A DNA stretch of 20,142 nucleotides from the NCBI GenBank assembly GCA_033551855.1, contig JAWSUI010000062.1, positions 1-20,142 on the forward strand, in the 5' to 3' direction. Made by a program: the position numbers and the translations under genes. This document shows positions 1,638-18,996 of the stretch, piece by piece. This DNA comes from Deferrisomatales bacterium (lineage in GTDB: Bacteria; Desulfobacterota; Deferrisomatia; Deferrisomatales; JACRMM01). The notes under the pieces are model-generated. The model was not told where the DNA came from, did no database searches, and saw nothing but the letters and a program-made list of their open reading frames with translations. The first letter of the stretch is position 1. Each line of letters starts with the position of its first letter.

Positions 1638-4600
1638 TTGTCTCGGGGCATCAAGCGCATGGTGCTCGGGCTCGGTGCCGTCTTGGCGGTCCTTGCGGCA
1701 TTCCTCGTCCTGGTCGCCGCGATTGGGGTGTACCGCCCGGCAACGATGATGCCCCTGGCCGAGAAGCTCCTGCGGCCGCCGGGGGGTACGGCCTCCCTGG
1801 AGGGCCTGGAGGTCGGCCTCCGGCCCCCGGTCCTCGTCCTGCAGGGCCTCGACGTCCGCTGGGCCGATCCCGATGACCGCCTTCGCCTGGAGCGACTCCG
1901 AGCCGTCATCGTTCCGGGCCGAGTCCTCGGCCGCGACCCCTGGCTCCGAGCGCTCGAGATCCACGGCCTGGAGGTCCGGCGGCACCTGCGCGGCGAGGGA
2001 ACCGGCGGGCCGCCGGACCTGTCTCCGCTTTCCTGGCTCTTTGCCGTGGAGGACCTCACGGTACGGGAGGCCCGGTTCGACGTGGACGTGGGTGGCACGG
2101 AGGTGACCCTGGACGGACTCTCCCTGAGCCTGACCCCTGTGGGAGACACGGCGCGGGCGCTCGCCCTGGAGGCCGGGATCGGCCTCCGGCGGGCAGGGGC
2201 GACCCCGACCCGGGGCTGGATCCGGGGTATCGGGGAGATCACCGCGGAGCAGACGCTGGCCCTGCGCCTGGACCTGACCGTCCCGAGCCCCGCAGTGAGC
2301 GGCCTCGGCGGCGACCTCAACGCGAACGCCGACCTTGCGCTGAGCCCGAAACGCATGGAAGTGGGAGCGCTGGAGCTGGAGCTCTCCGGCGCCCGCCTCC
2401 GCTGGACGTCCGGGGAGGCGTGGGAGCTCGGCACGGGCCGCGCGTCCCTGGCGGGCGGGGTCGGGCTAGACGGCTCGGACCCGCGCGTCGAGCTCAGCCG
2501 GCTCGATGTCGGCGACCTGCTTCAGGGCCGCGGAAGCGTCTCGGGCCCGACCCTGGCCCGGCTGTCCGGCCGCATGGATGCCACCCTCTTGGACGTCGGC
2601 CTCCTGAAGGCGGGTCTGTCGCCGCTCCTTCCCGCCGACCTCCGGGACCTCGACGCGGGGGGCGAGCTGCTCCTCCGGCTCGAGGGTTCTGCCAGCCGGG
2701 ACGGCCTCTCTCTGGCCCTGGACGCACGGCCCGAAGAGATCGTCCTTTCCTGGCCGAGCCGGGGGCTCGAGGCCCGCCTGGGAGGCACCCTGCGGGTCAC
2801 GGCGCCCCTGCGCGGACCGACCGCGGAGACGTGGGCCGAGACCGCCCTGGAGGGTCGTTTGGAGGCCGTGGCCGACCTGGCACGCCCGCCACTGGCGGTG
2901 CGGTCCGTGCACCTCGCCCTGCCGCTATCGGGCTCGGTCTCGGCGCTCCGCTCCCGGGGGGCCTCCCTCTCCGTAGGCTCCGGCCAGGTGCTGTGGGACG
3001 GCCGAACCCTGCCCCTGGGAAACCTCAGCGCCCAGGGCAACATGGCTCTCGACGGGGCTGCGGTTCGCATCGACGCCTTTCGGATCGAGTCGGGGGCTCT
3101 GGGCCGTATAGAGGGAGAGGCAACCCTGGACGCCGGAGTCCGGACCGCCCGCCTCACCGGGGACTCCTTTCCGCTGGGTCCCCTCTCAGACCTCCTGTGG
3201 GCGGCGGCGGACCTCCCGGGGCAGGCCTGGCACGCCGAGGGCTCGGCCGCCGTCACCGCCCGGGTGGATCCCGCCGAGGGCGGAGAGCGGGTGGCGGCGG
3301 AGCTCCGGCTCCTGGGGGCGGGGTTCAGCTCTCCGGACGGCGAGCTCCTGGCTCAGGGACTCGAGGGGAGCCTGGCACTGGAGTCGCGAACCGGGCCTAG
3401 CCCCGCCGCTCCACAGCTCATGGGTGAGCTGAGCCTCGGTCGGGGCGAAGCCCTATGGGGCACCGTGTACCTGGACCTCTCCCGCTCGCCCCTCGACGTC
3501 CGCCTCAGCGGCTCGCCCAGGAGCGGCGCCCTAGAGAACGCTGCAGCCTCAAGCCGACTCCAGGGGTTCGCCAGCCTGCGCGTCACCGGCGACCTGCGCC
3601 GCGAGGAGGACCGCTGGCGCCACCGGGGCCGTCTCGTGGTGGACGAGGCCGCCCTGGGGCCCCTGTTCCAAACGTTCGTGAGGGAGCCGCTCGCCGCCTC
3701 ACGCCCCGATCTCGGCGTCCTGCAGGCCGGGGGAATCGGCAGACTGGAGCTCGAGTTCGAGGGGTTGGACCGGGACGCGGACCTTCGGGGCCGCCTCGAG
3801 GTGCGCTCTGCCGGGCTGACGGCCGAAGGCGAACCCGCGATGGTGTCCGGGCTCGACCTCGACCTTCCCCTCTCCTATGCCCTGAGCCGCACCCGGGGAT
3901 CCGCCGCCCCCCCCGCAGGGGCCGGCTGGGGGCGCCTCCGTGCAGAGAGCCTGGCACTAGCCGGAGCAGAGCTGGGACCGCTGGACCTTCCGGTGGCCCT
4001 CGTGCCCAACCGCCTCTATCTCGGCGGCACGCTGGAATTCCCCCTCCTCGGGGGGCACCTCGTCGTGAGCCGAATCGTGCTGGAGGAACCCCTCTCCCCG
4101 GACTTCCGCGCGACCTTTGCGGCGGACGTGGAGGAGCTGGACCTAGGCCGGACGGCCTTGGAGAGGTTGACCGCGGAGGGGAGCCTTCGGGGCGCCCTCG
4201 ACCCCGTCACGGTCGATGCTCGCGAGCTCGCCGCGGCCGGGACACTCACGGGCGAGCTGTTCGGCGGCCGGCTCCAGGCCCGCAACCTCGCGGTTCGGCA
4301 CCCCTTCGCGGCGGGCCGTGAGATCGCCGGCGACTTCGAGGCGATCGGCATGGACCTGGCGCAACTCAGCCGGGCCCTCGACGTGGGGCAGGTCACCGGT
4401 CGGCTCTCGGCCTCGCTCACCGGTCTGCGCGTGGCCTACGGCCAGCCCGTGGCCTTCCACCTCCGGGCGGAGTCGCAGCCGGCCAAGGGGGTGGATCAGC
4501 AGGTGAGCCTCAAGGCAGTCAATACGATCTCGCTCCTCAGCACCGGGTCCGCCATCGGGGGGGCCGGCGTCTCGTTCATGACCAGCCTGTTCCGTCAGTT

Positions 4601-4823
4601 CCCCTATGACCGGATCGGCTTCGAGTGCGGTCTCGAGAACGACGTGTTCACGGTGCGAGGCCTCATCCGGGAGCATGGGGTAGAATACCTGGTGAAGCGG
4701 CCGTTCCTCGGGGGCATCAATGTGATCAACCAGAACCCGGACAATCGGATCCGCTTCTCGGACATGGTCCGGAGGCTGACGAGACTGACCCAGGAGAACA
4801 TCGGACCCGAAACCCGGCCCTGA
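1638..4823 (+). CDS. ydbH: AsmA-like/YdbH-family intermembrane lipid-bridge protein, 1061 aa
   Basis: TTG start after GGAG, one N-terminal TM helix, long Gly/Leu-rich amphipathic beta-strand repeats, and a C-terminal FPYDRIGFECGLENDVF...GINVIN...IRFSDMVRRL region. Directly followed by a YdbL-type gene, as in the ydbH-ynbE-ydbL operon. Confidence 0.75.
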   Translation: MSRGIKRMVLGLGAVLAVLAAFLVLVAAIGVYRPATMMPLAEKLLRPPGGTASLEGLEVGLRPPVLVLQGLDVRWADPDDRLRLERLRAVIVPGRVLGRDPWLRALEIHGLEVRRHLRGEGTGGPPDLSPLSWLFAVEDLTVREARFDVDVGGTEVTLDGLSLSLTPVGDTARALALEAGIGLRRAGATPTRGWIRGIGEITAEQTLALRLDLTVPSPAVSGLGGDLNANADLALSPKRMEVGALELELSGARLRWTSGEAWELGTGRASLAGGVGLDGSDPRVELSRLDVGDLLQGRGSVSGPTLARLSGRMDATLLDVGLLKAGLSPLLPADLRDLDAGGELLLRLEGSASRDGLSLALDARPEEIVLSWPSRGLEARLGGTLRVTAPLRGPTAETWAETALEGRLEAVADLARPPLAVRSVHLALPLSGSVSALRSRGASLSVGSGQVLWDGRTLPLGNLSAQGNMALDGAAVRIDAFRIESGALGRIEGEATLDAGVRTARLTGDSFPLGPLSDLLWAAADLPGQAWHAEGSAAVTARVDPAEGGERVAAELRLLGAGFSSPDGELLAQGLEGSLALESRTGPSPAAPQLMGELSLGRGEALWGTVYLDLSRSPLDVRLSGSPRSGALENAAASSRLQGFASLRVTGDLRREEDRWRHRGRLVVDEAALGPLFQTFVREPLAASRPDLGVLQAGGIGRLELEFEGLDRDADLRGRLEVRSAGLTAEGEPAMVSGLDLDLPLSYALSRTRGSAAPPAGAGWGRLRAESLALAGAELGPLDLPVALVPNRLYLGGTLEFPLLGGHLVVSRIVLEEPLSPDFRATFAADVEELDLGRTALERLTAEGSLRGALDPVTVDARELAAAGTLTGELFGGRLQARNLAVRHPFAAGREIAGDFEAIGMDLAQLSRALDVGQVTGRLSASLTGLRVAYGQPVAFHLRAESQPAKGVDQQVSLKAVNTISLLSTGSAIGGAGVSFMTSLFRQFPYDRIGFECGLENDVFTVRGLIREHGVEYLVKRPFLGGINVINQNPDNRIRFSDMVRRLTRLTQENIGPETRP

Positions 4824-4845: not shown

Positions 4846-5448
4846 ATGGGATCCCTTCGGAAGCTGTGGCCCCCGAACCTCCCCCCCCTGGCCCCCTTGA
4901 CCGTCGCGGCCTTCTTGGCCGCCTGCGTGACGGTGAACATTTACTTCCCGGCGGCCAAGGTGGAAGAAGCCGCGAAGCAGATCGTGGAGGAGGTCTACCA
5001 GGAAAAGGGGGAGAGACCCCAGACCTTCCGCGACCCCTCCCCGGGCACCGGCGGATGGCCGGCGTGGCTCGGACCCCGGGAGGCCCACGCCCAGGAGGCC
5101 GCGACCGTCAGCAACGCCGCCATCCGGGCACTGAAGGACCAGATCGCCCAGCGCCACGGCCAGCTCGCCCCACACTACGCACAGGGGCAGATCGGCATCG
5201 ACCGCGAAGGGTACCTGCAGGTGCGCGACACCGCCGGCCTCGGGCTGTCCGAGGTGGCGAGCCTGAAGCGCTTGGTGGAGGCGGACAACACAGCCCGACG
5301 CCAGCTCTACGCGGAGGTCGCCCGAGCCCTGAACATCGAGCCCCAGCAGGTGGGTCAGATCCAGGAGATATTTGCCCGGGAGTGGCGCGACAAAGCCCAG
5401 GCCGGCTGGTGGGTGCAGGACGACGCCGGGGTGTGGAACCAGCGATAG
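4846..5448 (+). CDS. ydbL: YdbL (DUF1318) family lipoprotein with YnbE-like N-terminus, 200 aa
   Basis: RBS GAGGAG, lipobox FLAA-C then VTVNIYFPAA. DUF1318-like core GQIGIDREGYL...LVEADNTARRQLYAEVA...FAREWRDKAQAGWWVQDDAGVW. Confidence 0.85.
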   Translation: MGSLRKLWPPNLPPLAPLTVAAFLAACVTVNIYFPAAKVEEAAKQIVEEVYQEKGERPQTFRDPSPGTGGWPAWLGPREAHAQEAATVSNAAIRALKDQIAQRHGQLAPHYAQGQIGIDREGYLQVRDTAGLGLSEVASLKRLVEADNTARRQLYAEVARALNIEPQQVGQIQEIFAREWRDKAQAGWWVQDDAGVWNQR

Positions 5449-7092: not shown

Positions 7093-8549
7093 GTGAAGAG
7101 ACGGGAATTCCTTCGTTTCGGGTCCTGCGGCCTGGCCGCTGTGACCTTCGGGACTGTGAGTCTCCCGAGCTTTCTCCGAACGGGCCGAGCGCATGCCGCC
7201 TCTCCATCCGGGGCGCTCCCTCTCACACTGATCGAAGCCAATGCCGAGATGGTCGACGGCACCCTCGTCTACTCCTGGGCCTTCGACGGTCCGGCCGGGC
7301 CGCGGATTCCGGGACCGCTGCTTCTCGCGACGGAGGGGAGAGGATCCGCCTGGAGGTCCGAAACGAGATTCCGAACGGGGGCGACCACGGCTTTGCCGTG
7401 CCGGGCGTTGTGGACAGTGGCCCCATCCCCCACGGGGCGACGGTGCCCGTGGAGTTCACCGCCCCGGAGGCCGGGACATACCTCTACTTTGACCCGTTCA
7501 ACGCGCCAGTCAACAGGGTCATGGGTCTGCACGGGGTGTTGCTGGTCACACCTTCCGCCGTGGGCAGCGATACCCCCTACAGCCGGCCGACTCCCAACGT
7601 CCAGCGCCTGTTCGACGATCTCGGGAGCCCCGGCTGGTCTTCCGGACGCGGCACGAACCACTTTCCGGGGCACCCCTGGGATCCCGACAGGACATGGATC
7701 TGGCTCTTCCATACCGTCGATCCGGACAAGAACGCCCTGCTGGACCCCGAGCGGCCCGGATCGGTCCCCTTCCTGTCGGCCTCCGAGTACCAGCAGGGCT
7801 ACCTGCCGCGCTACTTCACGCTGAACGGCAAGAGCGGTTACTTCGCGGCCGGCCACCATCCGGACGACGACGAGCATGCCTACACCGGGCCCTTGGCAGA
7901 TTACGACCTGCAGCGCGACATCGCGCCATTTGGCAACGTCGGCCAGCCCGCCCTCATCCGAACCGTCAACGCGGGCCTGGCCACCCACTCGCTGCACCCG
8001 CACGGCAACCACTACTACCTGCTCGCGGAAAATGGGACGGTACGCGACAACCTGTGGTGGGTCGACACCTGGACGCTGGCCCCACTGGACCGAAAGGATC
8101 TGCTGCTCCCCTTCATCCGCCCCCCGGAGATCCCCGTGTGGCCGCCGGTGGACGAGCTTTTCCCCCTGCAGTACACGATGCACTGCCACACGGAGATGTC
8201 GCAGACCGCGGCCGGCGGCAACTACCCCCAGGGGGCCGTGACCCACTGGCAGATCGACGGCGACGTGACCCCGGACGACGCGGTGATCCTCGTGGACCGG
8301 GCCGAGATCCGGGTTCGCTCCGGCCGCCTGCTCCTGGAGGGCCGCTGCTCGACGGCGGGGATCGTCCTCGACCTGCACCCCGGCGACGGTAGCGCGCCGG
8401 CCCTCGCGGAGTTTCCCGTGGGCGCGGACGGCCGATGGCGCGTCCAGGGCCGAGCCCTGCCGTTTCTCTCCAGCCGCACTGCCACGGTAATGTTCCACGA
8501 GGGCGACGTGGTGCGCGCGACCCGCACGGTCCCGTTGCAGCTGCGCTGA
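7093..8549 (+). CDS. Tat-exported two-domain multicopper-oxidase-like protein A (about 485 aa reconstructed), interrupted by a 1-nt frameshift at about 7335-7338
   Basis: RBS GGAGG and GTG start; MKRREFL...AHA is a Tat signal. PGPLLLATEG continues in the other frame as ERIRLEVRN...HGFAVPG...GTYLYFD. The C-terminal cupredoxin domain has HSLHPHG and HCH. Either a pseudogene or a homopolymer sequencing error. Confidence 0.85.
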
Positions 8550-8642
8550 CACAGCAGGCCCCTTGCCCCCAAGGCCGGGGGATGAAGGCATTCGAGCCCG
8601 CGCATCCGCTTCAGGAATAGCCCCTAAAATGGAGGACAGATC

Positions 8643-9911
8643 ATGGCGCCCGTGACCATTCCTCGCGACGCCGGCCTCCCGGCTGCCGCCGACGTCGAGG
8701 ACACACCCTCCTTTCGCGGCTTCGCCTGCGACGTGCTGCAGTCGACGGACATCCTGGCCGATCCCGATGTCACGAACCTCTTCAGCGCCGAGTTCAAGGA
8801 ACGGCTGCAGCACGACATCGATGAGGGGGTGCTGGCCCCGGGGTACCGCTCCGTGAGGGTGCTGCGGACGCCCGACCGGGTGGAGCCGGACCGGCTTTTC
8901 ATACGGGAATTCGACCGGCGCGACCTCGCACTGCCGGTGAACGCGGCGGACGGAGCCACGGAGGAGATCGCGATCTGGGGCTTCACCGACCCCCTCGGGG
9001 CCGACGAGCTCGGGTTCCCCAGCCCTACGATCCGTGCGGTCCAGGGGGAGGTCGTGCACGTGTACCATCGACCCGGGCACGGGCCCCACACCATCCACTC
9101 CCACGGCATCGGCATGACCCCGGTGAACGACGGGGTGGGCCACACCACCTTCGAGCTGGAAGGGGACGGCTACATCTACCAGTGGCTGGCCCCCGAGCCG
9201 GGGACCTACCTCTACCACTGCCACCGCAACACGGTGCTGCACTTCGAGATGGGGATGTACGGGCTGCTCATCATCGACCCCCCCGTGGCGGGCGCCCCGT
9301 TCGCCGACGGCGGGCCCGGGTTCGCGGCCCGCCGGAAAGACCTGGTCCATTACGACGTCGAGGGGCTTTGGGTGATCGACGACATCGACCGCCGCTGGCA
9401 CGACGACCGGGAAGACGACGGGGTGCTCATTCACGGCCACGGCGCGGGCCTGCTCTGCCCCTTCCTGCCCTGGGACCCCGACCCGACGGAGCACCCGCAC
9501 CTGCACCGCTTCGAGCCCGACCGCTTCCTCATCTCCGGGGTCATGGCCGGCCAGGACGACCCCCTGATCACCCATCCAAGAGTTGCGGTCTCCGCCCGTC
9601 CGGGAGACACGATCCTCCTGCGCATTCTCAACGCCGCCTACACCCGGGCCCGCTTCGTCTTTCCATCCTCCCTCGCCGCCGAGGTCATCGCCGTGGACGG
9701 CAAGGCCCTGGGCGGCTCGGGACACCGGAGCTACTCCCAGCCCTTCCCCCTGAGCGAGCTGGACCACCGGTTCGAGCTGACCACTGCCCAGCGTTGGGAC
9801 GTGCTCATCCCCAATGCCCCCGCCGGAGAGTGGGAGGTGGGCGTGGAGTTCCGCGACTGGATCAGCGGGGCCCTTCTGGGGCGCGCTCGCACCCGGATCA
9901 CCGTGGGTTAG
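8643..9911 (+). CDS. Two-domain multicopper-oxidase-like protein B, 422 aa, no signal peptide
   Basis: RBS GGAGG; FPSPTIRAVQGE, HTIHSHG and GTYLYHCHRNTVLHFEMGMYG give a complete type-1 Cu motif. The second domain (ILLRILNA, VIAVDG, AQRWDVL) lacks His motifs. Confidence 0.9.
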   Translation: MAPVTIPRDAGLPAAADVEDTPSFRGFACDVLQSTDILADPDVTNLFSAEFKERLQHDIDEGVLAPGYRSVRVLRTPDRVEPDRLFIREFDRRDLALPVNAADGATEEIAIWGFTDPLGADELGFPSPTIRAVQGEVVHVYHRPGHGPHTIHSHGIGMTPVNDGVGHTTFELEGDGYIYQWLAPEPGTYLYHCHRNTVLHFEMGMYGLLIIDPPVAGAPFADGGPGFAARRKDLVHYDVEGLWVIDDIDRRWHDDREDDGVLIHGHGAGLLCPFLPWDPDPTEHPHLHRFEPDRFLISGVMAGQDDPLITHPRVAVSARPGDTILLRILNAAYTRARFVFPSSLAAEVIAVDGKALGGSGHRSYSQPFPLSELDHRFELTTAQRWDVLIPNAPAGEWEVGVEFRDWISGALLGRARTRITVG

Positions 9912-9959: not shown

Positions 9960-10020
9960 CGCTGGCGGCTTGCGTGCCTTCCTGCCCGGCGGCGTTCGAT
10001 GGAGCGCCCCTTGCCCGCCT
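9960..10020. repeat. Dispersed intergenic repeat, copy 2 (copy 1 at 1074-1133)
   Basis: 25/28 identity over the core plus the shared downstream GCCCGCCT. Confidence 0.6.
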
Positions 10021-10106
10021 CTACCAACCTTCGCCGGCCCTTGACCTTTCTTCGCGCCGTGCTACGCACGTTCTCGCGGGTCCGCAGGAACGGCACCGCC
10101 ACTCTC

Positions 10107-10149
10107 CGCCGCGCAGGATCGCCATGCCCGAGCCGCTGCTCATCGCCCG
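10107..10149 (+). repeat. 43-bp perfect direct repeat of the RBS and first codons of the HerA-like gene (17495-17537)
   Basis: CGCCGCGCAGGATCGCCATGCCCGAGCCGCTGCTCATCGCCCG is identical at both sites, and both are preceded by CTCT(C). Confidence 0.95.
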
Positions 10150-10322
10150 CCCGCACCCCAGGTCCAGCACCCGCGCCCCGGGCCGCAGCTCCATGGCCCC
10201 GGCAAGCCACTCGGTCATCCACAGCGCGTTCGGCCCCATCTGGTTCTCGAGCACCCAAGCGGATCGTACCGGCTAGACCTCGGGAACTCGGGCTTGTGGA
10301 GGAAATCCAGCGGTTCCGCCAT
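10135..10322 (-). pseudogene. 5' fragment of a class I SAM-dependent methyltransferase, frameshifted and truncated
   Basis: RBS GGAGG and ATG at 10322. MAEPLDFLHKPEFPRSSRYDP, then a 1-nt shift near 10259, then WVLENQMGPNALWMTEWLAGAMELRPGARVLDLGCGRAMSS. It breaks off just after SAM motif I, inside the 43-bp repeat. Confidence 0.8.
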
Positions 10323-10537
10323 CGAGCACCTCCCGACCCGCTACCAGGCCCGGGCATCCCTCCGGGGGCGGCCGTGCGCTGTCCCGCCCGGGTCACCCGG
10401 AGGCTTGAAACCTCGAACGGCCCCGAGGCGCAGCAAACCTAGCACACGCGCCCCAAGGACTCCACCGGGCTCCCGCCGAAACCCCCGGCCCCACGGAAAT
10501 CCAGCCTCCCGTTCCCCGCCTGTCGGCGGCCTAGGAC

Positions 10538-10565
10538 TTGACAACGGGGGAATCTCGACTAGGGT
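10538..10565 (+). promoter_or_regulatory. Putative sigma70 promoter upstream of the E1 cluster
   Basis: Perfect TTGACA, 16 nt spacer, TAGGGT. Confidence 0.45.
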
Positions 10566-11068
10566 TTCTTTCAGGGCCCCCGAGCGGTCCCCCGGCAGGT
10601 CGACAGGCACCTCGACGGGCGGTGCCCCAGAGAAGTGGGCGGCTCCCGGTGTGGTTTCCTCAGCACGCCGGCGCGACGTACCTCTCCCCTGCCTTCGCGG
10701 AGGGAGCCATGAGAGGGTGGCTGCGAAAATTGCCCATACCAGGGCCTCGAGGGGTGCAATTACCGCTTGAGGCCTCCCGCCAACGAGATCCGACACGATC
10801 CCTCGCCCCCGGCTGTTCCTGATTTCCTGCCCCCGGCGGGCATTCGATCTGAACCACGCTCTCCGCCGCGGGGGCGGAGCACCAGACGTCCATGTGATTT
10901 CTTGCGCCAGCAGCGGCCCGCCGGAGGGTGCCGCGCTTTCGGGTCGCGAGATGAGCTTACCGCGTTGGATGCGCTTATGCGTCGCAAGCAGACCCGGTAC
11001 ACACCCCTGGAAAGAATCTCTCCAGACCCCGGATCCCCGTGGGGGCCGGTTTGCTCCGGAGGAACGTC

Positions 11069-12295
11069 ATGACAGAGAACACCAGCAGCCCACCGAAGAC
11101 CCAGGACCGCGACGACAGCGACTGGATCCCTCCCACCAGCCGGCGCGGCTTCCTCGCGGCAATCGCGGGGGCCGGCGCGGCGATTTCGCTCGGAAGCAAG
11201 CTCTCGTGGGCCAACGGCGAGATCGGCTTCTGGGCCAAGGATCTCTCGAACGAGCAGTTGATCCACCTCTACACGACGATCCAGCGCATCCGCTGGTTCG
11301 AGCGCACCTGCGTGGACAAGATGCTCACCGAGCCCGGATACCGCGGGTACAACCACTTCTACGTCGGCCAAGAGGCGGTGGCCACCGGCGTTTCCGCCGC
11401 CCTGAACAACACCGGCGGGGTCATGGAGGCCGACCTGGTCTACAGCACCCACCGGCCCTCCGGCCACGCCATCGCCAAGGGCGTGGACGTGAAGAAGATG
11501 GCCGCCGAGTACGAGTTTCGGGCCACGGGCCTCAACAAGGGCTACGCGGGCGAGATGCATATCGCCGACAAGGCGGTCGGCTTCATGGGGGCCGACGGCA
11601 TGATCGGACCCGGGTACGTGATCGCCACGGGGTCCGCGTTCGCGATCCGCGCCCGGGGTAGCAAGCAAGTCGTCGTCAACTACGGCGGCGACGGGACGTA
11701 CGCCACCCCCCACTTCCACAGCGCGCTGAACAACGCCGCCCTATTGAAGCTTCCGTTCATCTACGTGCTGGAGAACAACCTGTACCATCAGTACGCCCAC
11801 TACTCCTACTCCTGCCCCATGAAGGACATCGCCATCGCCGCCAAGACCTATGGGATCCCCGGGGTGGTGGTGGACGGACAGGACGTCATCCAGGTGTACA
11901 ACGTGGCCAAGCAGGCCGTGGACCGGGCGCGCGCCGGTGAGGGGCCGACCCTCATCGAGGCCAAGACCTACCGCTACTACAACCACTGGGGCGCCCCCGG
12001 CGCCAAACCCGGCGAGCTCGGCGCCTTCGGGTACGACCCGCTGGCGATCACGTCCTTCCGGCCGGAGCGCGAGGTGCGCGCCTGGATGGCCCGGGACCCG
12101 GTGGACATCTCCCGGAACACCCTCATCAGTTGGGGGGTGATGGACCGCGCGAGAGCCGACGCGATTGAGGCCGCCGCCAAGAAGGAGATGGTCGACGCCT
12201 TCGCCTGGGCCGACAAGCAGCCCCTCGGCAAGCCCGAGGACGGGCTCCGGCACGTCTTCATCGAGGGCACCGTCCTGCCCCGCCAGTTCGGCTGA
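11069..12295 (+). CDS. ThDP-dependent dehydrogenase E1 alpha subunit (AcoA/PdhA-like) with Tat signal peptide, 408 aa
   Basis: RBS GGAGGA. HFYVGQEA, STHRPSGHAIAKG, GEMHIAD, ThDP motif GDG-x-ENN, VDGQDV and GPTLIEAKTYR are present. The N-terminus reads SRRGFLAAIAGAGAAISLGSKLSWA. Confidence 0.93.
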   Translation: MTENTSSPPKTQDRDDSDWIPPTSRRGFLAAIAGAGAAISLGSKLSWANGEIGFWAKDLSNEQLIHLYTTIQRIRWFERTCVDKMLTEPGYRGYNHFYVGQEAVATGVSAALNNTGGVMEADLVYSTHRPSGHAIAKGVDVKKMAAEYEFRATGLNKGYAGEMHIADKAVGFMGADGMIGPGYVIATGSAFAIRARGSKQVVVNYGGDGTYATPHFHSALNNAALLKLPFIYVLENNLYHQYAHYSYSCPMKDIAIAAKTYGIPGVVVDGQDVIQVYNVAKQAVDRARAGEGPTLIEAKTYRYYNHWGAPGAKPGELGAFGYDPLAITSFRPEREVRAWMARDPVDISRNTLISWGVMDRARADAIEAAAKKEMVDAFAWADKQPLGKPEDGLRHVFIEGTVLPRQFG

Positions 12296-12364: not shown

Positions 12365-13336
12365 ATGGCACGCAAGAGCTTCATGTACTCGGTCCTCGAG
12401 GCCGTCCAGTACGAGATGCAGAGAGACCCGAACATGATCTGGATCTTCGAGCTCACGCCCCCCGTGGCGTCGACGCCGGGGAAGCCGGTCATCAACCTGG
12501 AAAGGGAGTTCGGCCGCAAGCGGGTGGTCAACACCGGCATCGACGAGATGTGGATGGCCGCCTGCGTCCTGGGCGCCGGGCTGGCCGGCTCCCGGGCCGC
12601 CACCTACATCCCCTACCAGGGCAACGCGATGTGCTTCCAGATCCTGCAGAACCACGCCGGCAAGCTGCACCACATGACCGGCGGCATGGCCGAGATGCCC
12701 GTGGTCTTCGTGCTGGAGATGACCGGGCAGACCCCAGGCTTCGCCGGCCAGCACTCCGACTACGAGATCGACACCTACTACGCCCACATCCCCGGCCTCA
12801 AGACGGTGATCCCCTCCAACCCCACCGACGCCAAGGGGATGATGGTGTCCGCCCTGCGGGACCCCGACCCGGTGGCGTTCCTCTATGCCGCCGGCCTGCG
12901 GGACATGATCGAGGAAGTGCCCGACGAGCAGTACACCACGCCCCTGGACAAGGCCGCCGTCCGCTCGGAGGGGAGCGACGTGACGATCGTGGGCTCCGGC
13001 GGCGGGATGCCCGAGGTGCTCAAGGCCACCGACGAACTCCAGAAGCAGGGGGTGAAGGTCGAGACGATCGACCTGCGCTCCCTCAAGCCCATGGACACCG
13101 AGACCCTCGTGGCTTCCGTCCGCAAGACCAGGCGCCTTCTTGCCGTGGACCAGTCCTACTACACCCTCGGCCCGGCGGCGGAAGTGATCGCCCGCGTAGC
13201 GGAGAACGTGGACGGGGCCCGCTTCAAGCGCGTCGCATTCCCGGACGCTCCCCCGCCCGCCTCGCCGGAGATGTTCCTGTGGATGCGGCCGAACGCCGGC
13301 CACATCGTGGCGGCCGCGAAGAAGCTCATCGGCTGA
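12365..13336 (+). CDS. ThDP-dependent dehydrogenase E1 beta subunit (AcoB/PdhB-like), 323 aa
   Basis: FGRKRVVNTGIDE (cofactor-activating Glu), AGQHS, HIPGLKTVIPSNPTDAKG, DPDPV and ETIDLRSLKPMD. No signal peptide. Confidence 0.93.
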   Translation: MARKSFMYSVLEAVQYEMQRDPNMIWIFELTPPVASTPGKPVINLEREFGRKRVVNTGIDEMWMAACVLGAGLAGSRAATYIPYQGNAMCFQILQNHAGKLHHMTGGMAEMPVVFVLEMTGQTPGFAGQHSDYEIDTYYAHIPGLKTVIPSNPTDAKGMMVSALRDPDPVAFLYAAGLRDMIEEVPDEQYTTPLDKAAVRSEGSDVTIVGSGGGMPEVLKATDELQKQGVKVETIDLRSLKPMDTETLVASVRKTRRLLAVDQSYYTLGPAAEVIARVAENVDGARFKRVAFPDAPPPASPEMFLWMRPNAGHIVAAAKKLIG

Positions 13337-13404
13337 GAGTGCTCGGGTGCCGCCGCGGGCGAGCGGCGGCACCTCCCGGAGCCCACCCACGGAGGGCACC
13401 CCCC

Positions 13405-13722
13405 ATGGAAACGCGCAGTGCTCGTCCCGGCGCGATGGCGCCGCCGGAAGCCCCCGTCCCGCGGTGCGGCAACTGCGGCAGCGAGCAGGTTTGCAGCACC
13501 ACGGTCCGGTCGGCCTTCTGGCACGGCGACCGCCTGGTGGTCGTGGAAGACGTCCCGGCGCTCGTGTGCGATGCGTGCCACGAGCAGTTCTACGACGACG
13601 GCACCGTGGTGGTGCTCGACCTGCTCCAAGGGGACGGTTTCCCGCCCGAGCAGGCCCGCAGGGAGCTGCGCGTCCCGGTGTTCTCCTTCGAGGACCGGGC
13701 CCGCCGCCGAGGGTCGTCGTGA
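13405..13722 (+). CDS. YgiT/MqsA-type zinc-finger protein, 105 aa
   Basis: RBS GGAGGG. CGNC...LVVVEDVPALVCDAC.EQFYD matches the YgiT-type finger pattern. No HTH follows. Its stop overlaps the next start (GTGA). Confidence 0.85.
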   Translation: METRSARPGAMAPPEAPVPRCGNCGSEQVCSTTVRSAFWHGDRLVVVEDVPALVCDACHEQFYDDGTVVVLDLLQGDGFPPEQARRELRVPVFSFEDRARRRGSS

Positions 13723-14297
13723 GGCCCGGGCGGGGTTGGCCGATCGCCGCAGCGTTCGCGGCCCTCCTGCTGGGGATGGCCCCTGGGCCGGCCGCGGCCC
13801 AGCTCGACTACGCCTTCATGCCCAAGGGGGGCAAGGCGCTGTTGCTCGAGGTCCTCTCCGGCGCCGGAGCCGGGCTGAGCTTCGAGGAGATGCTCTCCGC
13901 CCGACGAACGGAGGACGAGTGGCGGGAGCTCCTGGCCCCGTGGGCCGAGGGCCTGAGCGTCCGCGAGCGGCAGACACTGGCGGTATACCTCGAGGTGAAC
14001 CTGCCGGTGCGGGATCCCGGGGCGGTCGCCGCCAAACGGGGGGACCCGGGGGCCCTCTACGCCGCGCTTCCGCGCGACGGCCGGGAACTGGCCTGGCACG
14101 AGTGCCAGTTCTGCCACTCCCTCTTCACGAGCCACCTGACCCAGGACCGCGGGGTGCAGGCGTGGATGAACATGTTCGAATCGCCCTTTCACCGGGAGAT
14201 GAAGATGACGCCGCAGGAGCGCGAGGAGTTCTCCCGCTACTCGGCGATCAACATGCCCATGAAGATGGAGGACGTGCCGCCGGACCTGCGTTTCTGA
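13719..14297 (+). CDS. Exported monohaem cytochrome c, paralogue 1, 192 aa
   Basis: GTG start coupled to the upstream stop; Sec signal ending AAA-Q; CQFCH; alignable along its length with the next gene. Confidence 0.82.
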   Translation: MRPGRGWPIAAAFAALLLGMAPGPAAAQLDYAFMPKGGKALLLEVLSGAGAGLSFEEMLSARRTEDEWRELLAPWAEGLSVRERQTLAVYLEVNLPVRDPGAVAAKRGDPGALYAALPRDGRELAWHECQFCHSLFTSHLTQDRGVQAWMNMFESPFHREMKMTPQEREEFSRYSAINMPMKMEDVPPDLRF

Positions 14298-14361: not shown

Positions 14362-14964
14362 ATGAGGTGCAAAGGACTGGGCGTGATCGGCGCGCTGGCC
14401 CTCGCCGCGGTGGCGCTGGGCGGGCCCGCCCGGGCAGAGTTCGACCCGATCTTCGACTTCATCCCTCTCGGCGGCCGTTCGCTCCTTGCCGAGGTGCTGG
14501 CGGCCAAGCCGCCGGCGGACGAGGTGCGCGCCCTCCTCACGGGGCAACGCTCCGCCGAGAAGTGGCTCGGCTACCTGAAGGACCGCACGGCGGCCCTGAG
14601 CGGATTGCAGGGCCTCGCCGACGAGGAGCTGGCGACCCTCGCGGACTACCTCGCCGTGAACATGCCCCTCCCGCCGGACCGGGTGCCCGCGGATCCGGCC
14701 AGGGCGAACTGGCCGAAGGTCCTTCCCCGGGACGGGCGCGACCTGGCGCTGGAGTACTGCCAGTCCTGCCACATCATCACGGTCACCGTCACCCAGGACC
14801 GGACCGTGGAGCACTGGCTCGGCACGATGAACAAGCCGAGCCACATCGAGATCAAGCTCTCGGCGAAGGAGCGCGAGGCGCTGGCCCGCTACCTGGTCCT
14901 CAACGCCGGGATCCCGATCGACCTGATCCCCGAGGACCTTCGCGCCGGCGGGGCCTCGTACTGA
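14362..14964 (+). CDS. Exported monohaem cytochrome c, paralogue 2, 200 aa
   Basis: RBS GGAGG; Sec signal ending ARA-E; LPRDGRDLALEYCQSCH...TQDR...W. Confidence 0.85.
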   Translation: MRCKGLGVIGALALAAVALGGPARAEFDPIFDFIPLGGRSLLAEVLAAKPPADEVRALLTGQRSAEKWLGYLKDRTAALSGLQGLADEELATLADYLAVNMPLPPDRVPADPARANWPKVLPRDGRDLALEYCQSCHIITVTVTQDRTVEHWLGTMNKPSHIEIKLSAKEREALARYLVLNAGIPIDLIPEDLRAGGASY

Positions 14965-15025: not shown

Positions 15026-16498
15026 ATGCTCTTCACGTCGTTCGGCTTCTTCGTCTTCCTGCCCCTGGCGCTGGTGGGGTTCGCCGCCGTGCCGGCCCGC
15101 CACCGCTGGCTGTGGCTGCTCCTGGCCAGCGCCGTCTTCTACGGCCTCTGGCAGCCGGCCAACCTCCTGTACCTGGGGGCCATGACGCTCGCGGTTCTCG
15201 GCTGCGGGCGGGGCCTCGACCGCGCCCGCGGACGCCGCCTCGCCGATCTGATCCTCGCCGGCGGGCTCGTCCTCGTGCTCGGCTCCCTGTTCGCCTTCAA
15301 GTTCTACGACTTCCTCGCCGCGGAGCTCGAGGGCTGGGCGGGGCCATTGCTGGGCCTGGAGCCCGCCGGCCTCCTGCCCCGCATCGGCGTGACGGCGCCG
15401 GCGGGGTACTCCTTCTACGCCTTCGCAGCGGCCAGCTACCTCGTGGACGCTCGGGCGGGCCGGCTGCCCGCCGAGCGAACGTGGGGCCACACGGCTCTCT
15501 ACGTGGCCTACTTCCCGAAGATCTTCGCCGGCCCGATCGAGCGGGCCACGACCTTCCTGCCCCAGGTCTGGTCCGGCCTGCGCGCGAACCCCGAGATGGC
15601 CGTCCTGGGCCTGCAGCTCATCGGGTGGGGGCTGTTCAAGAAAGTGGTCATCGCCGACAACCTAGCCCCGGTGGTCGACCGGAGCTTCACCATCGCCGCA
15701 TACGCGCCACCGATGGAGCTACTGCTCAGCGTCTATTTCTTCGCCTTTCAGATCTACTGCGACTTTTCGGGATACACCGACATCGCCGTCGGGGTGTCGC
15801 TCCTGTTCGGCATCCGCCTGATGGAGAACTTCCGCCGCCCGTACCTTTCGGTGAGCACCGCGGAGTTCTGGGGAAGCCGGTGGCACATCTCCCTGGGGCA
15901 CTGGTTCCGGGACTACCTGTTCATACCCCTGGGAGGCAGCAAAGCCGGGCCGATGCGCCGGTACCTGAACATCATGGCTGTCTTCACCGTGAGCGGGCTG
16001 TGGCACGCCGGCCTGGGCTACGGGGTGGGCTGGACTTTTCTCGTTTGGGGGGCGCTCAACGGCCTCTACCAGTGGGTCGGCGTCGGGACCGCCCCGGTCT
16101 GGCGGGGGCTGGGAGAGCGGATGCCCCGGGTGCGCGCCAGCACGGCCCTGCGGGTGCTGCGGGCGGTCCTGACCTTCCACCTGATCGCGATCGCCTGGGT
16201 CTTCTTCCGGGCCTCTTCGGTGGGCGACGCGCTTCTCGTCCTGAAGCGGATCGGTACCAGCCTGGGACAGATCGCCGGGCTCGTGACGCGCTACCCTTAC
16301 AGCGTCGACCACTATCTGGCCTTCGGCCTCATCGCCCTCCTTCTCGTCATCGAGGTGCTGGACGAGCGGCGCTCCATCTTCCAAAGGCTCTCCGCCGCGC
16401 CCGTTGCTCTGCGGTGGGGCGTGTACTACTTGGTCCTGTTCTCGCTGCTCATCCTCGGCCGCTGGCAGGCCAAGGAGTTCATCTACATGCAGTTTTGA
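15026..16498 (+). CDS. MBOAT family O-acyltransferase (AlgI/PatA/DltB-like), 490 aa
   Basis: Polytopic. YFPKIFAGPIER, QIYCDFSGYTDIA, ENFRRPY, EFW..RWHISL..WFRDYLFIPLGG, SGLWH (catalytic His) and C-terminal FIYMQF. Confidence 0.95.
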   Translation: MLFTSFGFFVFLPLALVGFAAVPARHRWLWLLLASAVFYGLWQPANLLYLGAMTLAVLGCGRGLDRARGRRLADLILAGGLVLVLGSLFAFKFYDFLAAELEGWAGPLLGLEPAGLLPRIGVTAPAGYSFYAFAAASYLVDARAGRLPAERTWGHTALYVAYFPKIFAGPIERATTFLPQVWSGLRANPEMAVLGLQLIGWGLFKKVVIADNLAPVVDRSFTIAAYAPPMELLLSVYFFAFQIYCDFSGYTDIAVGVSLLFGIRLMENFRRPYLSVSTAEFWGSRWHISLGHWFRDYLFIPLGGSKAGPMRRYLNIMAVFTVSGLWHAGLGYGVGWTFLVWGALNGLYQWVGVGTAPVWRGLGERMPRVRASTALRVLRAVLTFHLIAIAWVFFRASSVGDALLVLKRIGTSLGQIAGLVTRYPYSVDHYLAFGLIALLLVIEVLDERRSIFQRLSAAPVALRWGVYYLVLFSLLILGRWQAKEFIYMQF

Positions 16499-16544: not shown

Positions 16545-17483
16545 ATGAGAGCTCTCGGCAAAGCGGCTGTGCTCTTCACCGCCATCGGCGTGCTGCTCTA
16601 CGGCGGCCTGTACTGGACGGCGGAGCGGCTCGTCTACCGCACCGGGCGCACCAACCCCTTCTTCAAGATGGCCACCACAGAGGACCGATCCCTCGACTGG
16701 GTCATCCTCGGCGCCTCCCACGCAATGCCGCTCGACTTCGACGATTTCAACGCCCACATGGAGGCCGCAACGGACCTACGCATCCTGAACCTCGCGGCAC
16801 CCGGCACGGGACCGCTCTACACCCGGTTCGTCCTGGAGCACTTCCTGCGCGGGCGCCGAACCGGGAACGTCCTCTACGTCCTGAACTCCTTCGCCTTCTC
16901 GTCTCGCGCGTGGAACGAGGACCGCTTCGCCGACGCCGGCCTGCTCCGGCGCACCCCCTTCGAGCCGTCCCTGGCCCGACACTTGCTGGAGTACAGCCGG
17001 CGCCACGGCGTGTCGGCCCTCGCCGTGCTCGACTACGTGACGGGCTTCTCCAAGATCAACAACCGGGGGCGCTTCCAGCCGGACATCTGGGAAGGGGAGA
17101 AACAGTTCGACCGGACCCACCGCCCGTCGGCCGTGTCCGACCGCAAGAGAATCAGTTATCTTTACCCGAGCCCGCCGGACGCCGCAGCTCGCGAGCGGTA
17201 CCTGCGGGAGTTCACGGCCCTCCTCACCCTGGCCAGGACCAGGGGCGCCCACGTGGTGGCCGTCAAGATGCCGGTGCCCAAGCGCTTCCACACCCGCCTC
17301 CCGGAGGAAGAGGTCTTCGACCAGGCGGTCAGGAAGCTTCTCGCGGCCGGCGGCGCCGACTTCCACGACTTTTCCCTGACGATGGACGAGCCGCGCTTCT
17401 ACTTTGACACCGACCACCTGAACCGCACGGGGTTGACGGAGTTCTTCGAGCGACACCTGAAGGAGATCCTCCTCACCCCCTGA
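16545..17483 (+). CDS. Membrane-anchored SGNH-fold (DltD/AlgJ-like) acyltransferase/esterase partner, 312 aa
   Basis: N-terminal TM, VILGASH (block I Ser), NLAAPG (block II) and FDTDHLN (block V DxxH). Directly follows the MBOAT. Confidence 0.8.
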
Positions 17484-17511
17484 CATGCCCCTCTCGCCGC
17501 GCAGGATCGCC

Positions 17512-18996
<1,485 letters not shown>

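Follow-up and report, generated by a model that had tools for sequence, protein, structure and literature searches.

A seven-gene cassette with a twin-arginine signal on its E1 alpha subunit points to a thiamine diphosphate enzyme of the periplasm

Contig JAWSUI010000062.1 of a Deferrisomatales bacterium (assembly GCA_033551855.1), analysed over its full 20,142 nucleotides (nt) and referred to here as the window, carries a cassette of seven colinear genes on its forward (+) strand. The first two encode the alpha and beta subunits of a thiamine diphosphate (ThDP)-dependent E1 enzyme; these are followed by a YgiT-type zinc-finger gene, two genes for CxxCH proteins (cytA and cytB), an MBOAT membrane O-acyltransferase gene and a gene for a DltD-like SGNH protein. 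E1 alpha opens with a twin-arginine translocation (Tat) signal, E1 beta has no signal, the catalytic residues of both subunits are intact and the same set of partners follows the pair in related loci. Based on the sequence comparisons below, we consider it probable (about 0.7) that the cassette encodes an E1 enzyme working in the periplasm, which would be exported by Tat with beta as a passenger and would pass its electrons to the cytochromes. An earlier note on this DNA had proposed the export of an alpha-beta complex; the sequence evidence supports that proposal, which was incomplete in that it missed the zinc-finger, cytochrome, MBOAT and DltD-like partners.

The signal peptide of E1 alpha and the lineage that carries it

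The E1 alpha gene (11069-12295, +; 408 residues) is preceded by the ribosome-binding site GGAGGA (11058-11063, +), which lies 5 nt ahead of its ATG. Its first 48 codons (11069-11212, +) encode MTENTSSPPKTQDRDDSDWIPPTSRRGFLAAIAGAGAAISLGSKLSWA, after which the mature protein would begin with NGEIGFW. The layout is that of a Tat signal peptide, as judged from its anatomy, its conservation and the profile TIGR01409: a polar n-region, T-S-R-R-G-F-L-A at residues 23-30, the Ala/Gly-rich hydrophobic core AAIAGAGAAISLG of 15 residues, and a c-region SKLSWA with a predicted cleavage site after S-W-A and before Asn49 (A-W-A in most relatives). These features agree with the consensus for such peptides, in which a motif of the S/T-R-R-x-F-L-K type, a weakly hydrophobic core of ~12-20 residues and an A-x-A-type site are found together. 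The earlier note had described the 48-residue extension with S-R-R-G-F-L at 11138-11155, the Ala/Gly-rich region with its S-W-A site and a good ribosome-binding site; on re-reading the letters, its coordinates proved exact and each of these elements was found where it had been placed.

To assess conservation we used two sets of relatives: 80 related loci from contigs of one genome per species, in which cassette genes were counted by tblastn with the window proteins, and 120 alpha homologues among the matches listed, 24 of which (76-92% identical) were aligned. The arginine pair is invariant in all 24 aligned homologues, in which the Ala/Gly-rich core, the A-x-A-type cleavage site and the start of the mature protein are conserved as well. 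Among the related loci the motif is present in 78 of 80 (51 of 52 rows parsed by a regular expression and, by eye, 27 of the other 28), and in the two exceptions, L039 and L052, the contig starts within the alpha gene. Across the loci the core usually has 15 residues, with a mean Kyte-Doolittle value of ~0.7. Conservation of the arginine pair, named in the earlier note as a way to check its reading, therefore holds among close homologues and extends to distant relatives at 37-52% identity. On the profile side, NCBIfam TIGR01409 (TAT_signal_seq) gives alpha 16.8 bits at a cut-off of 16.7, a marginal pass, and one homologue (P0011) is labelled a 'twin-arginine translocation pathway signal protein' by the automated annotation of its source. 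Conservation is thus the stronger sequence evidence for a Tat signal on alpha than the profile score.

The same data bear on whether the extension is a working signal at all. If it were a mis-called start or a vestigial leader, the enzyme would be cytoplasmic, as are all characterised members of the family apart from the mitochondrial ones, and the marginal score of the Tat hidden Markov model would fit such a reading. However, the 78 loci, and relatives as distant as 37% identity, keep the arginine pair, the core and the cleavage-type site; a usable start elsewhere is lacking, an E2 or E3 partner is not conserved nearby, and the other cassette products, the zinc finger excepted, carry signals or membrane helices. 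Translation from a point downstream of the arginines was the objection raised in the earlier note itself. The next in-frame starts, at residues 64 (TTG), 82 (GTG) and 85 (ATG), would all delete the invariant NGEIGFWAKDL block of the mature protein, so that a start downstream of the motif is not reasonable. We regard a cytoplasmic location as very improbable.

A search of 1.84 billion cluster representatives for distant relatives of alpha found ten, at 37-52% identity, that also open with twin-arginine signals, for example VSRRSFLKGLAVTGAG and ISRRDFLKTLGITGAG. The signal-less relatives open directly with the catalytic domain, and the nearest of them carry a THRGHGH-type motif. A FastTree phylogeny built from 110 full-length rows places 13 of the 14 rows with a signal in a single 16-row clade (local support 98), in which the family of the window and distant relatives stand together; the fourteenth, P0173, joins that clade weakly (support 42). 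By this sequence comparison the signal-bearing E1 alphas are one lineage rather than a one-off. The earlier note had called export highly atypical for the family, which is true of characterised E1s; it is not true of sequence space, where signal-bearing alphas make up a whole clade.

In one locus from a metagenome scan, L153, a distant alpha of the exported type reads RIDRRTLIGIMGSAGASSVVFSSC, with a twin-arginine signal that ends in a lipobox-like cysteine; judged from its sequence, this protein would be a Tat-routed lipoprotein variant. The lipobox-like FSSC after the twin-arginine core in L153 indicates that membrane attachment occurs in the lineage, and this, together with the fact that the MBOAT and DltD-like partners are membrane proteins, would suit an enzyme whose Tat signal stays uncleaved and which is tethered by the alpha N-terminus to the outer face of the inner membrane, beside these two partners. 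A short, weakly hydrophobic core as such speaks neither for nor against tethering; nevertheless, a core of 15 residues with a mean hydropathy of ~0.7 would make a poor stable membrane anchor. In addition, an A/S-x-A site, the usual mark of signal peptidase I, precedes the strongly conserved mature N-terminus in 52 of 52 parsed rows. For these reasons we find tethering through the uncleaved signal unlikely.

The E1 pair and its export as a complex

The mature part of alpha holds the ThDP diphosphate-binding (PP) domain of E1 enzymes (PF00676, 180.6 bits), and its best solved relative is the human pyruvate dehydrogenase (PDH) E1 alpha (1ni4_A, E 1.6e-31). The GDG-X27-NN motif for ThDP and Mg (residues 207-237, 11687-11779), with a spacer inside the 25-30 residues typical of the family, is invariant in the alignment, as is His306 of the catalytic YRYYNH(306)W loop, which is followed in our protein by an insertion of ~12 residues relative to the human subunit. 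The scores for the two PDH E1 alpha equivalogs are below their cut-offs (TIGR03182, 229.9 against 393.85; TIGR03181, 179.4 against 411.35), and we accordingly place alpha, by sequence, in the heterotetrameric E1 superfamily and outside the PDH E1 alpha equivalogs.

E1 beta (12365-13336, +; 323 residues) has the Pyr and transketolase-C domains (PF02779, 56 bits; PF02780, 100.4 bits) and is closest among solved structures to Geobacillus E1 beta (3duf_B, E 1.5e-51). In an alignment of 74 rows its mean column identity is 87%, and Glu61 and His130 are invariant; we take these two to be the catalytic residues, with Glu61 as the Glu of the Pyr domain that activates the cofactor, from the alignment to 3duf_B together with general knowledge of the family. 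Since the ThDP-binding and catalytic residues are invariant in both subunits, the pair looks like a working ThDP enzyme, not a relic. Beta begins M-A-R-K-S-F-M-Y, and this start is identical in 78 of 79 loci, without a signal. A stop codon often lies 1-5 codons upstream, which leaves no room for a hidden signal, and beta is thus as signal-less as the earlier note had described it.

The assembly of the window holds three further E1 loci, and the two of the alpha-beta type start directly at the catalytic domain. As these other E1s of the alpha-beta type have no leader, the pair in the window is an extra, specialised copy. The assembly also encodes TatC (242.8 bits) and has three Cytochrom_C_asm hits for cytochrome c maturation.

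Both subunits of an E1 enzyme contribute to its ThDP site, and the cytoplasm is the only place where ThDP can be had; the complex would therefore have to assemble and load its cofactor before it leaves through Tat. We propose that the two subunits fold and join around ThDP-Mg while still in the cytoplasm, that the complex crosses TatABC on the signal of alpha with beta as passenger, and that the signal is then cut after S-W-A. As an alpha2beta2 tetramer the complex would have a mass of ~150 kDa, within the range of known Tat cargoes.

The absence of a signal on beta and the presence of other E1 alphas in the assembly could instead be taken to mean that alpha leaves alone, by Sec or Tat, while beta remains cytoplasmic or has a different alpha as its partner. 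A lone alpha, however, would be inactive because the ThDP site needs both subunits; beta adjoins alpha in 79 of the 80 loci and is as strongly conserved as noted above; and the invariant arginine pair with its weakly hydrophobic core argues against Sec. We judge separate export of alpha to be extremely unlikely.

Export of the whole alpha-beta complex would resemble that of the Tat hitch-hikers, enzymes whose cofactor is loaded before export. In these systems, which include the small and large subunits of [NiFe] hydrogenase, DmsAB and PaoABC, one subunit bears the signal and a signal-less partner is encoded with it (for PaoABC, see PMC4273604). The cassette would differ from all of these in that its cofactor is ThDP-Mg and its candidate escort a YgiT-type zinc finger, not a chaperone of the TorD, DmsD, NapD or HybE type.

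Heterotetrameric pyruvate, acetoin (AcoA/AcoB) and branched-chain E1s share with the pair the common two-gene architecture, the Pfam domains, the ThDP motif and the catalytic Glu and His, and some alpha homologues are labelled acetoin:DCPIP oxidoreductase by their sources. Unlike these enzymes, the cassette has a Tat signal on alpha, the ~12-residue insertion, scores below the equivalog cut-offs and no conserved E2 or E3 neighbour, and its other genes encode a zinc finger, the CxxCH proteins cytA and cytB, and the DltB/DltD-like pair. E1 enzymes are by textbook account cytoplasmic or mitochondrial and dependent on a lipoyl-E2 and an E3. A full-text literature search, with subscription journals outside its coverage, found no description of a Tat-exported E1 or of any Tat-exported ThDP enzyme; one paper that it returned, PMC10888616, concerns ordinary PDH.

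The conserved partners

The order of the seven genes is constant across the 80 related loci, in which tblastn found alpha in 80, beta in 79, the zinc finger in 75, cytA and cytB in 73 each, MBOAT in 70 and the DltD-like gene in 62. The five loci without the zinc finger end at or before the end of beta, and the seven without cytA and cytB all end just past beta. Beyond the seven genes there is no conserved neighbour: when flanking open reading frames (ORFs) were clustered over the 80 loci, the largest cluster covered 13 loci. Nor did this clustering find a conserved E2 or E3 neighbour (the clusters were not scanned against Pfam, and the genomes may hold an E2 elsewhere). The upstream ORFs 9999-10442, 10294-10770, 7269-9767 and others, as well as a HerA-like gene downstream, were considered as cassette members and set aside, having a counterpart in 0 of the 80 loci; likewise, none of the remaining genes of the window recurs beside the cassette in any of them. 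By eye, some flank genes of related loci look like small heat-shock, BON or CBS proteins.

The zinc-finger gene (13405-13722, +) encodes a 105-residue protein without a signal peptide (TIGR03831, 45.7 bits at a cut-off of 20.2), with knuckles CGNC (13465-13476) and CDAC (13567-13578). It fills the gap between beta and cytA, which with a median of 447 nt across loci is longer than expected. An MqsA-type antitoxin, in which the zinc finger is fused to a C-terminal HTH domain, was considered and rejected, since the protein has only 105 residues and its matches to TIGR03830 (18.9, cut-off 61.8) and PF15731 (E 0.22) are poor. In all 75 related loci that reach that far, the zinc finger stands directly after beta. 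To look beyond close relatives we scanned metagenomes with the alignment of distant signal-bearing alphas as query. This returned 80 loci, mostly ordinary E1s, of which 53 carry both subunit genes on the same strand with 300 nt or more beyond beta; six of these were called signal-bearing (L091 by eye, the other five by script). All six (6 of 6) have one or two homologues of the zinc finger directly after beta, against 0 of the 47 signal-less loci. This link between zinc finger and export signal is the tightest association in our data set, and because the zinc finger is kept in distant signal-bearing loci where the MBOAT and DltD-like pair was not found in the sequence examined, it appears to be linked to export and not to that pair. 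We suggest that the zinc finger would either escort the signal while the complex is still assembling or be exported with it as a third passenger. Tandem duplication of the zinc finger is seen in distant signal-bearing loci (L089:5839-6522, L091:3862-4575 and L090:3151-3738), apparently as one ORF of 227-237 residues in L089 and L091. In the window, the stop codon of the zinc-finger gene overlaps the GTG start of cytA as GTGA (13719-13722), which suggests translational coupling of a cytoplasmic and an exported product.

The next two genes encode paralogous proteins, each with a Sec-type signal and a single CxxCH motif: cytA (13719-14297, +; 192 residues, signal ending …GPAAA|QLDY, CQFCH at 14103-14117) and cytB (14362-14964, +; 200 residues, CQSCH at 14758-14772). 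For cytA, a longer ORF (13347-14297) was discarded as the gene model because it would run over the zinc-finger gene, in a different frame, for its first 124 codons, whereas the GTG at 13719 gives a normal signal peptide. The CxxCH motif is kept in 73 of 73 copies of cytA and 73 of 73 of cytB. The structural model of cytB (pLDDT 87.9) gave local Foldseek matches to class I cytochromes c (c553, c6) with probabilities of 0.7-0.85, at E >1 and none at E <=0.001, while in VIA (Z 4-5.6) c-type cytochromes made up most of 50 rows. Pfam PF13442 scored 16.6, below its cut-off of 27.

Both halves of cytB match the class I cytochrome c fold and the haem motif is found in the C-terminal half only; going by the model, cytB looks like a dihaem cytochrome that has lost one haem site. 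The N-terminal half (mature residues 10-78, 14437-14670) gives its cytochrome c fold match, at VIA Z 4-5.6, without a CxxCH. At their other ends, cytB closes with an invariant L-R-A-G-G-A-S-Y (14941-14961), in a tail with pLDDT <50, and cytA with a conserved D-L-R-F (14283-14294), both tails following a shared V-P-x-x-L-R. These C-terminal tails may be docking peptides for a partner. A complex prediction for alpha (residues 49-408), beta and mature cytB, run on our own alignments, gave a score of 0.00 (mark 0.32), which says nothing either way.

The periplasmic enzyme would convert a 2-oxo acid or an acetoin-like acyloin to hydroxyalkyl-ThDP; its closest relatives without a signal resemble acetoin dehydrogenases, so that the two kinds of substrate are equally likely. 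As the lipoyl acceptor is absent outside the cell, the hydroxyalkyl-ThDP would be oxidised to acyl-ThDP in two one-electron steps by the two monohaem cytochromes, which would stand in for lipoamide, E3 and NAD. That such chemistry is feasible, and no more than this, is shown by PoxB and pyruvate:ferredoxin oxidoreductase, ThDP enzymes that oxidise hydroxyethyl-ThDP with a redox partner other than lipoamide. They differ from the cassette enzyme in fold or architecture, in their internal FAD or Fe-S relays and in being cytoplasmic or peripheral to the inner face of the membrane, and we know of no haem c acceptor for either. A functional analogy is offered by the SorAB sulfite dehydrogenase of Starkeya novella, in which the catalytic subunit, located in the periplasm, reduces a small partner subunit that is a c-type cytochrome. 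This partner, SorB (2blf_B), also ranks first among the VIA matches of the cytB model, at Z 5.6 over 62 residues, in a weak match that covers the haem-less N-terminal half. SorA, unlike the cassette E1, is a molybdenum enzyme, and the likeness of SorB to cytB is one of fold only, without a shown sequence relationship.

The link between the E1 pair and the CxxCH proteins is drawn from gene context, and ThDP enzymes of the same fold catalyse non-oxidative reactions as well. The exported complex might hence be a ThDP lyase or carboligase acting on an envelope or secreted compound, with the CxxCH proteins in another role, and it would agree with this that the sequence examined beside the distant signal-bearing loci L088-L091 contained no homologue of cytA or cytB. 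On the other hand, every one of the 73 loci long enough to include cytA and cytB has them colinear with the E1 genes and with the CxxCH motif intact, the histidines of reductive acyl transfer (alpha His306 and beta His130) are invariant, and cytB is hit again at the distant signal-bearing locus L153. We consider a lyase or carboligase quite unlikely, and electron transfer from the exported E1 to the cytochromes is the reading that we prefer.

The last two genes encode an MBOAT membrane O-acyltransferase of the DltB/AlgI-like type (15026-16498, +; 490 residues) and a DltD-like SGNH protein with an N-terminal membrane helix (16545-17483, +; 312 residues, from the ATG at 16545). The MBOAT protein passes PF03062 (82.9 bits) and is below the cut-off of the DltB equivalog TIGR04091 (128.8 against 375), with DltB as its best solved relative (6bug_C, E 5.6e-20). 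The DltD-like protein was assigned from its model (pLDDT 96.0, membrane helix at residues 2-33), for which the ten best Foldseek hits are all DltD (3bma_F at E 2e-7; also 6pfx, 6o93 and 7dxm); Pfam DltD scores 20.6, below its cut-off of 22.7. Its GASH (16710-16721) and DTDH (17406-17417) motifs contain Ser58, Asp288 and His291, which are invariant in an alignment of 48 rows. The pairing of an MBOAT protein with an extracytoplasmic, membrane-anchored protein of the SGNH type is also found in DltB/DltD, AlgI/AlgJ and PatA/PatB. In contrast to the Dlt pathway, the seven cassette genes include neither a DltA ligase nor a DltC carrier, the pair scores below the equivalog or Pfam DltD cut-offs, and the hosts are Proteobacteria.

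In the chemistry proposed here, the acyl group would pass to the serine of the DltD-like protein and to the MBOAT protein, which would stand in for E2. A tentative extension of the periplasmic reading, doubtful as a whole, is that the cassette is a PDH-like machine rebuilt for the outside of the cell, with a Tat-exported E1 and its zinc-finger escort or passenger, the cytochromes as electron sink, the DltD-like and MBOAT proteins for E2, and acyl-ThDP as an acyl donor independent of ATP and CoA. The acyl group would then be attached to a polymer of the envelope or returned across the membrane. If this were true, such a machine would bring the first ThDP cofactor class among Tat substrates and would answer how acyl groups are activated outside the cytoplasm.

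Distribution, regulation and what the cassette would mean

Several observations weigh against a periplasmic, cytochrome-coupled E1. Alpha exceeds the cut-off of the Tat profile by only 0.1 bit, and the precomputed Pfam label TAT_signal (PF10518) is attached to only 3 of the 120 listed alpha homologues. Three rows of the signal-bearing clade have no clear arginine pair: in P0127 it is replaced, P0130 is N-terminally short and P0164 has no signal. The assignment of the cytochromes is built on CxxCH and weak fold matches (Foldseek, VIA Z of at most 5.6, and the PF13442 score of 16.6 against 27). Operon membership is the sole tie of the MBOAT and DltD-like pair to E1 chemistry, and the pair is missing from the sequence examined around the distant signal-bearing loci. 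Because the window makes up one whole contig (20 kb) in an assembly of 132 contigs with 4.16% contamination, all same-genome arguments depend on its correct binning. Finally, no FNR-like box with at most two mismatches lies upstream of alpha in the window.

This last point concerns a feature of most relatives: an FNR/FixK-type palindrome, TTGAT-N4-ATCAA with at most two mismatches, precedes alpha in 68 of 76 related loci, in most of them 130-170 nt ahead of the twin-arginine codon, against 12 of 76 for a control inside the gene. In these relatives the box would mean that the operon is induced at low oxygen. The single FNR-like match in the window was dismissed, as it lies inside alpha and is at chance level. 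The ~670 nt upstream of alpha (10400-11068) contain no convincing gene.

The distribution of the cassette is patchy. Of 41 related genomes searched, cytB was found in the assembly of the window and in one genome of the same genus. No carriage on plasmids was seen, a tblastn search with alpha in 633 records finding only ordinary E1s of <60% identity. Among the sequencing runs listed, one DNA run contains the stretch and may be its source sample, and none of RNA was found. Alpha is closest, among the matches listed, to proteins from metagenome-assembled genomes of Hyphomicrobiales (85-92%). Directly after the cassette lies a HerA-like DUF853 ATPase gene (17485-18996; PF05872, E 8.6e-221), which is closest to Thiobacillus and other Hydrogenophilales (up to 88% over 84% of the query; ~83% at near-full coverage). 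The contrast in affinity between the HerA-like gene and alpha, together with the patchiness of the cassette, fits either horizontal acquisition or a mis-binned contig. At the other end of the window, a DUF1318 protein (4846-5448; PF07027, E 4.1e-18) follows a 1061-residue ORF (1638-4823) in which no Pfam or NCBIfam hit was found; neither is related to the cassette.

If the periplasmic reading is true, the exported E1 lineage would make thiamine diphosphate one more cofactor that Tat carries and would be a new example of the export of a passenger subunit. It would also define a periplasmic route by which 2-oxo acids or acyloins are oxidised straight into the cytochrome c pool, probably at low oxygen. 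The strict link between the signal and the YgiT-type zinc finger makes the latter a candidate for a new Tat escort or passenger subunit. To our knowledge the extracytoplasmic acyl donor is unsettled for several bacterial MBOAT systems, a question on which the association of an E1 with a DltB/DltD-like pair bears. Cultured and harmless carriers, which include Ramlibacter lithotrophicus, Chelativorans xinjiangense, Roseovarius marisflavi and Palleronia pontilimi, make the cassette directly testable.

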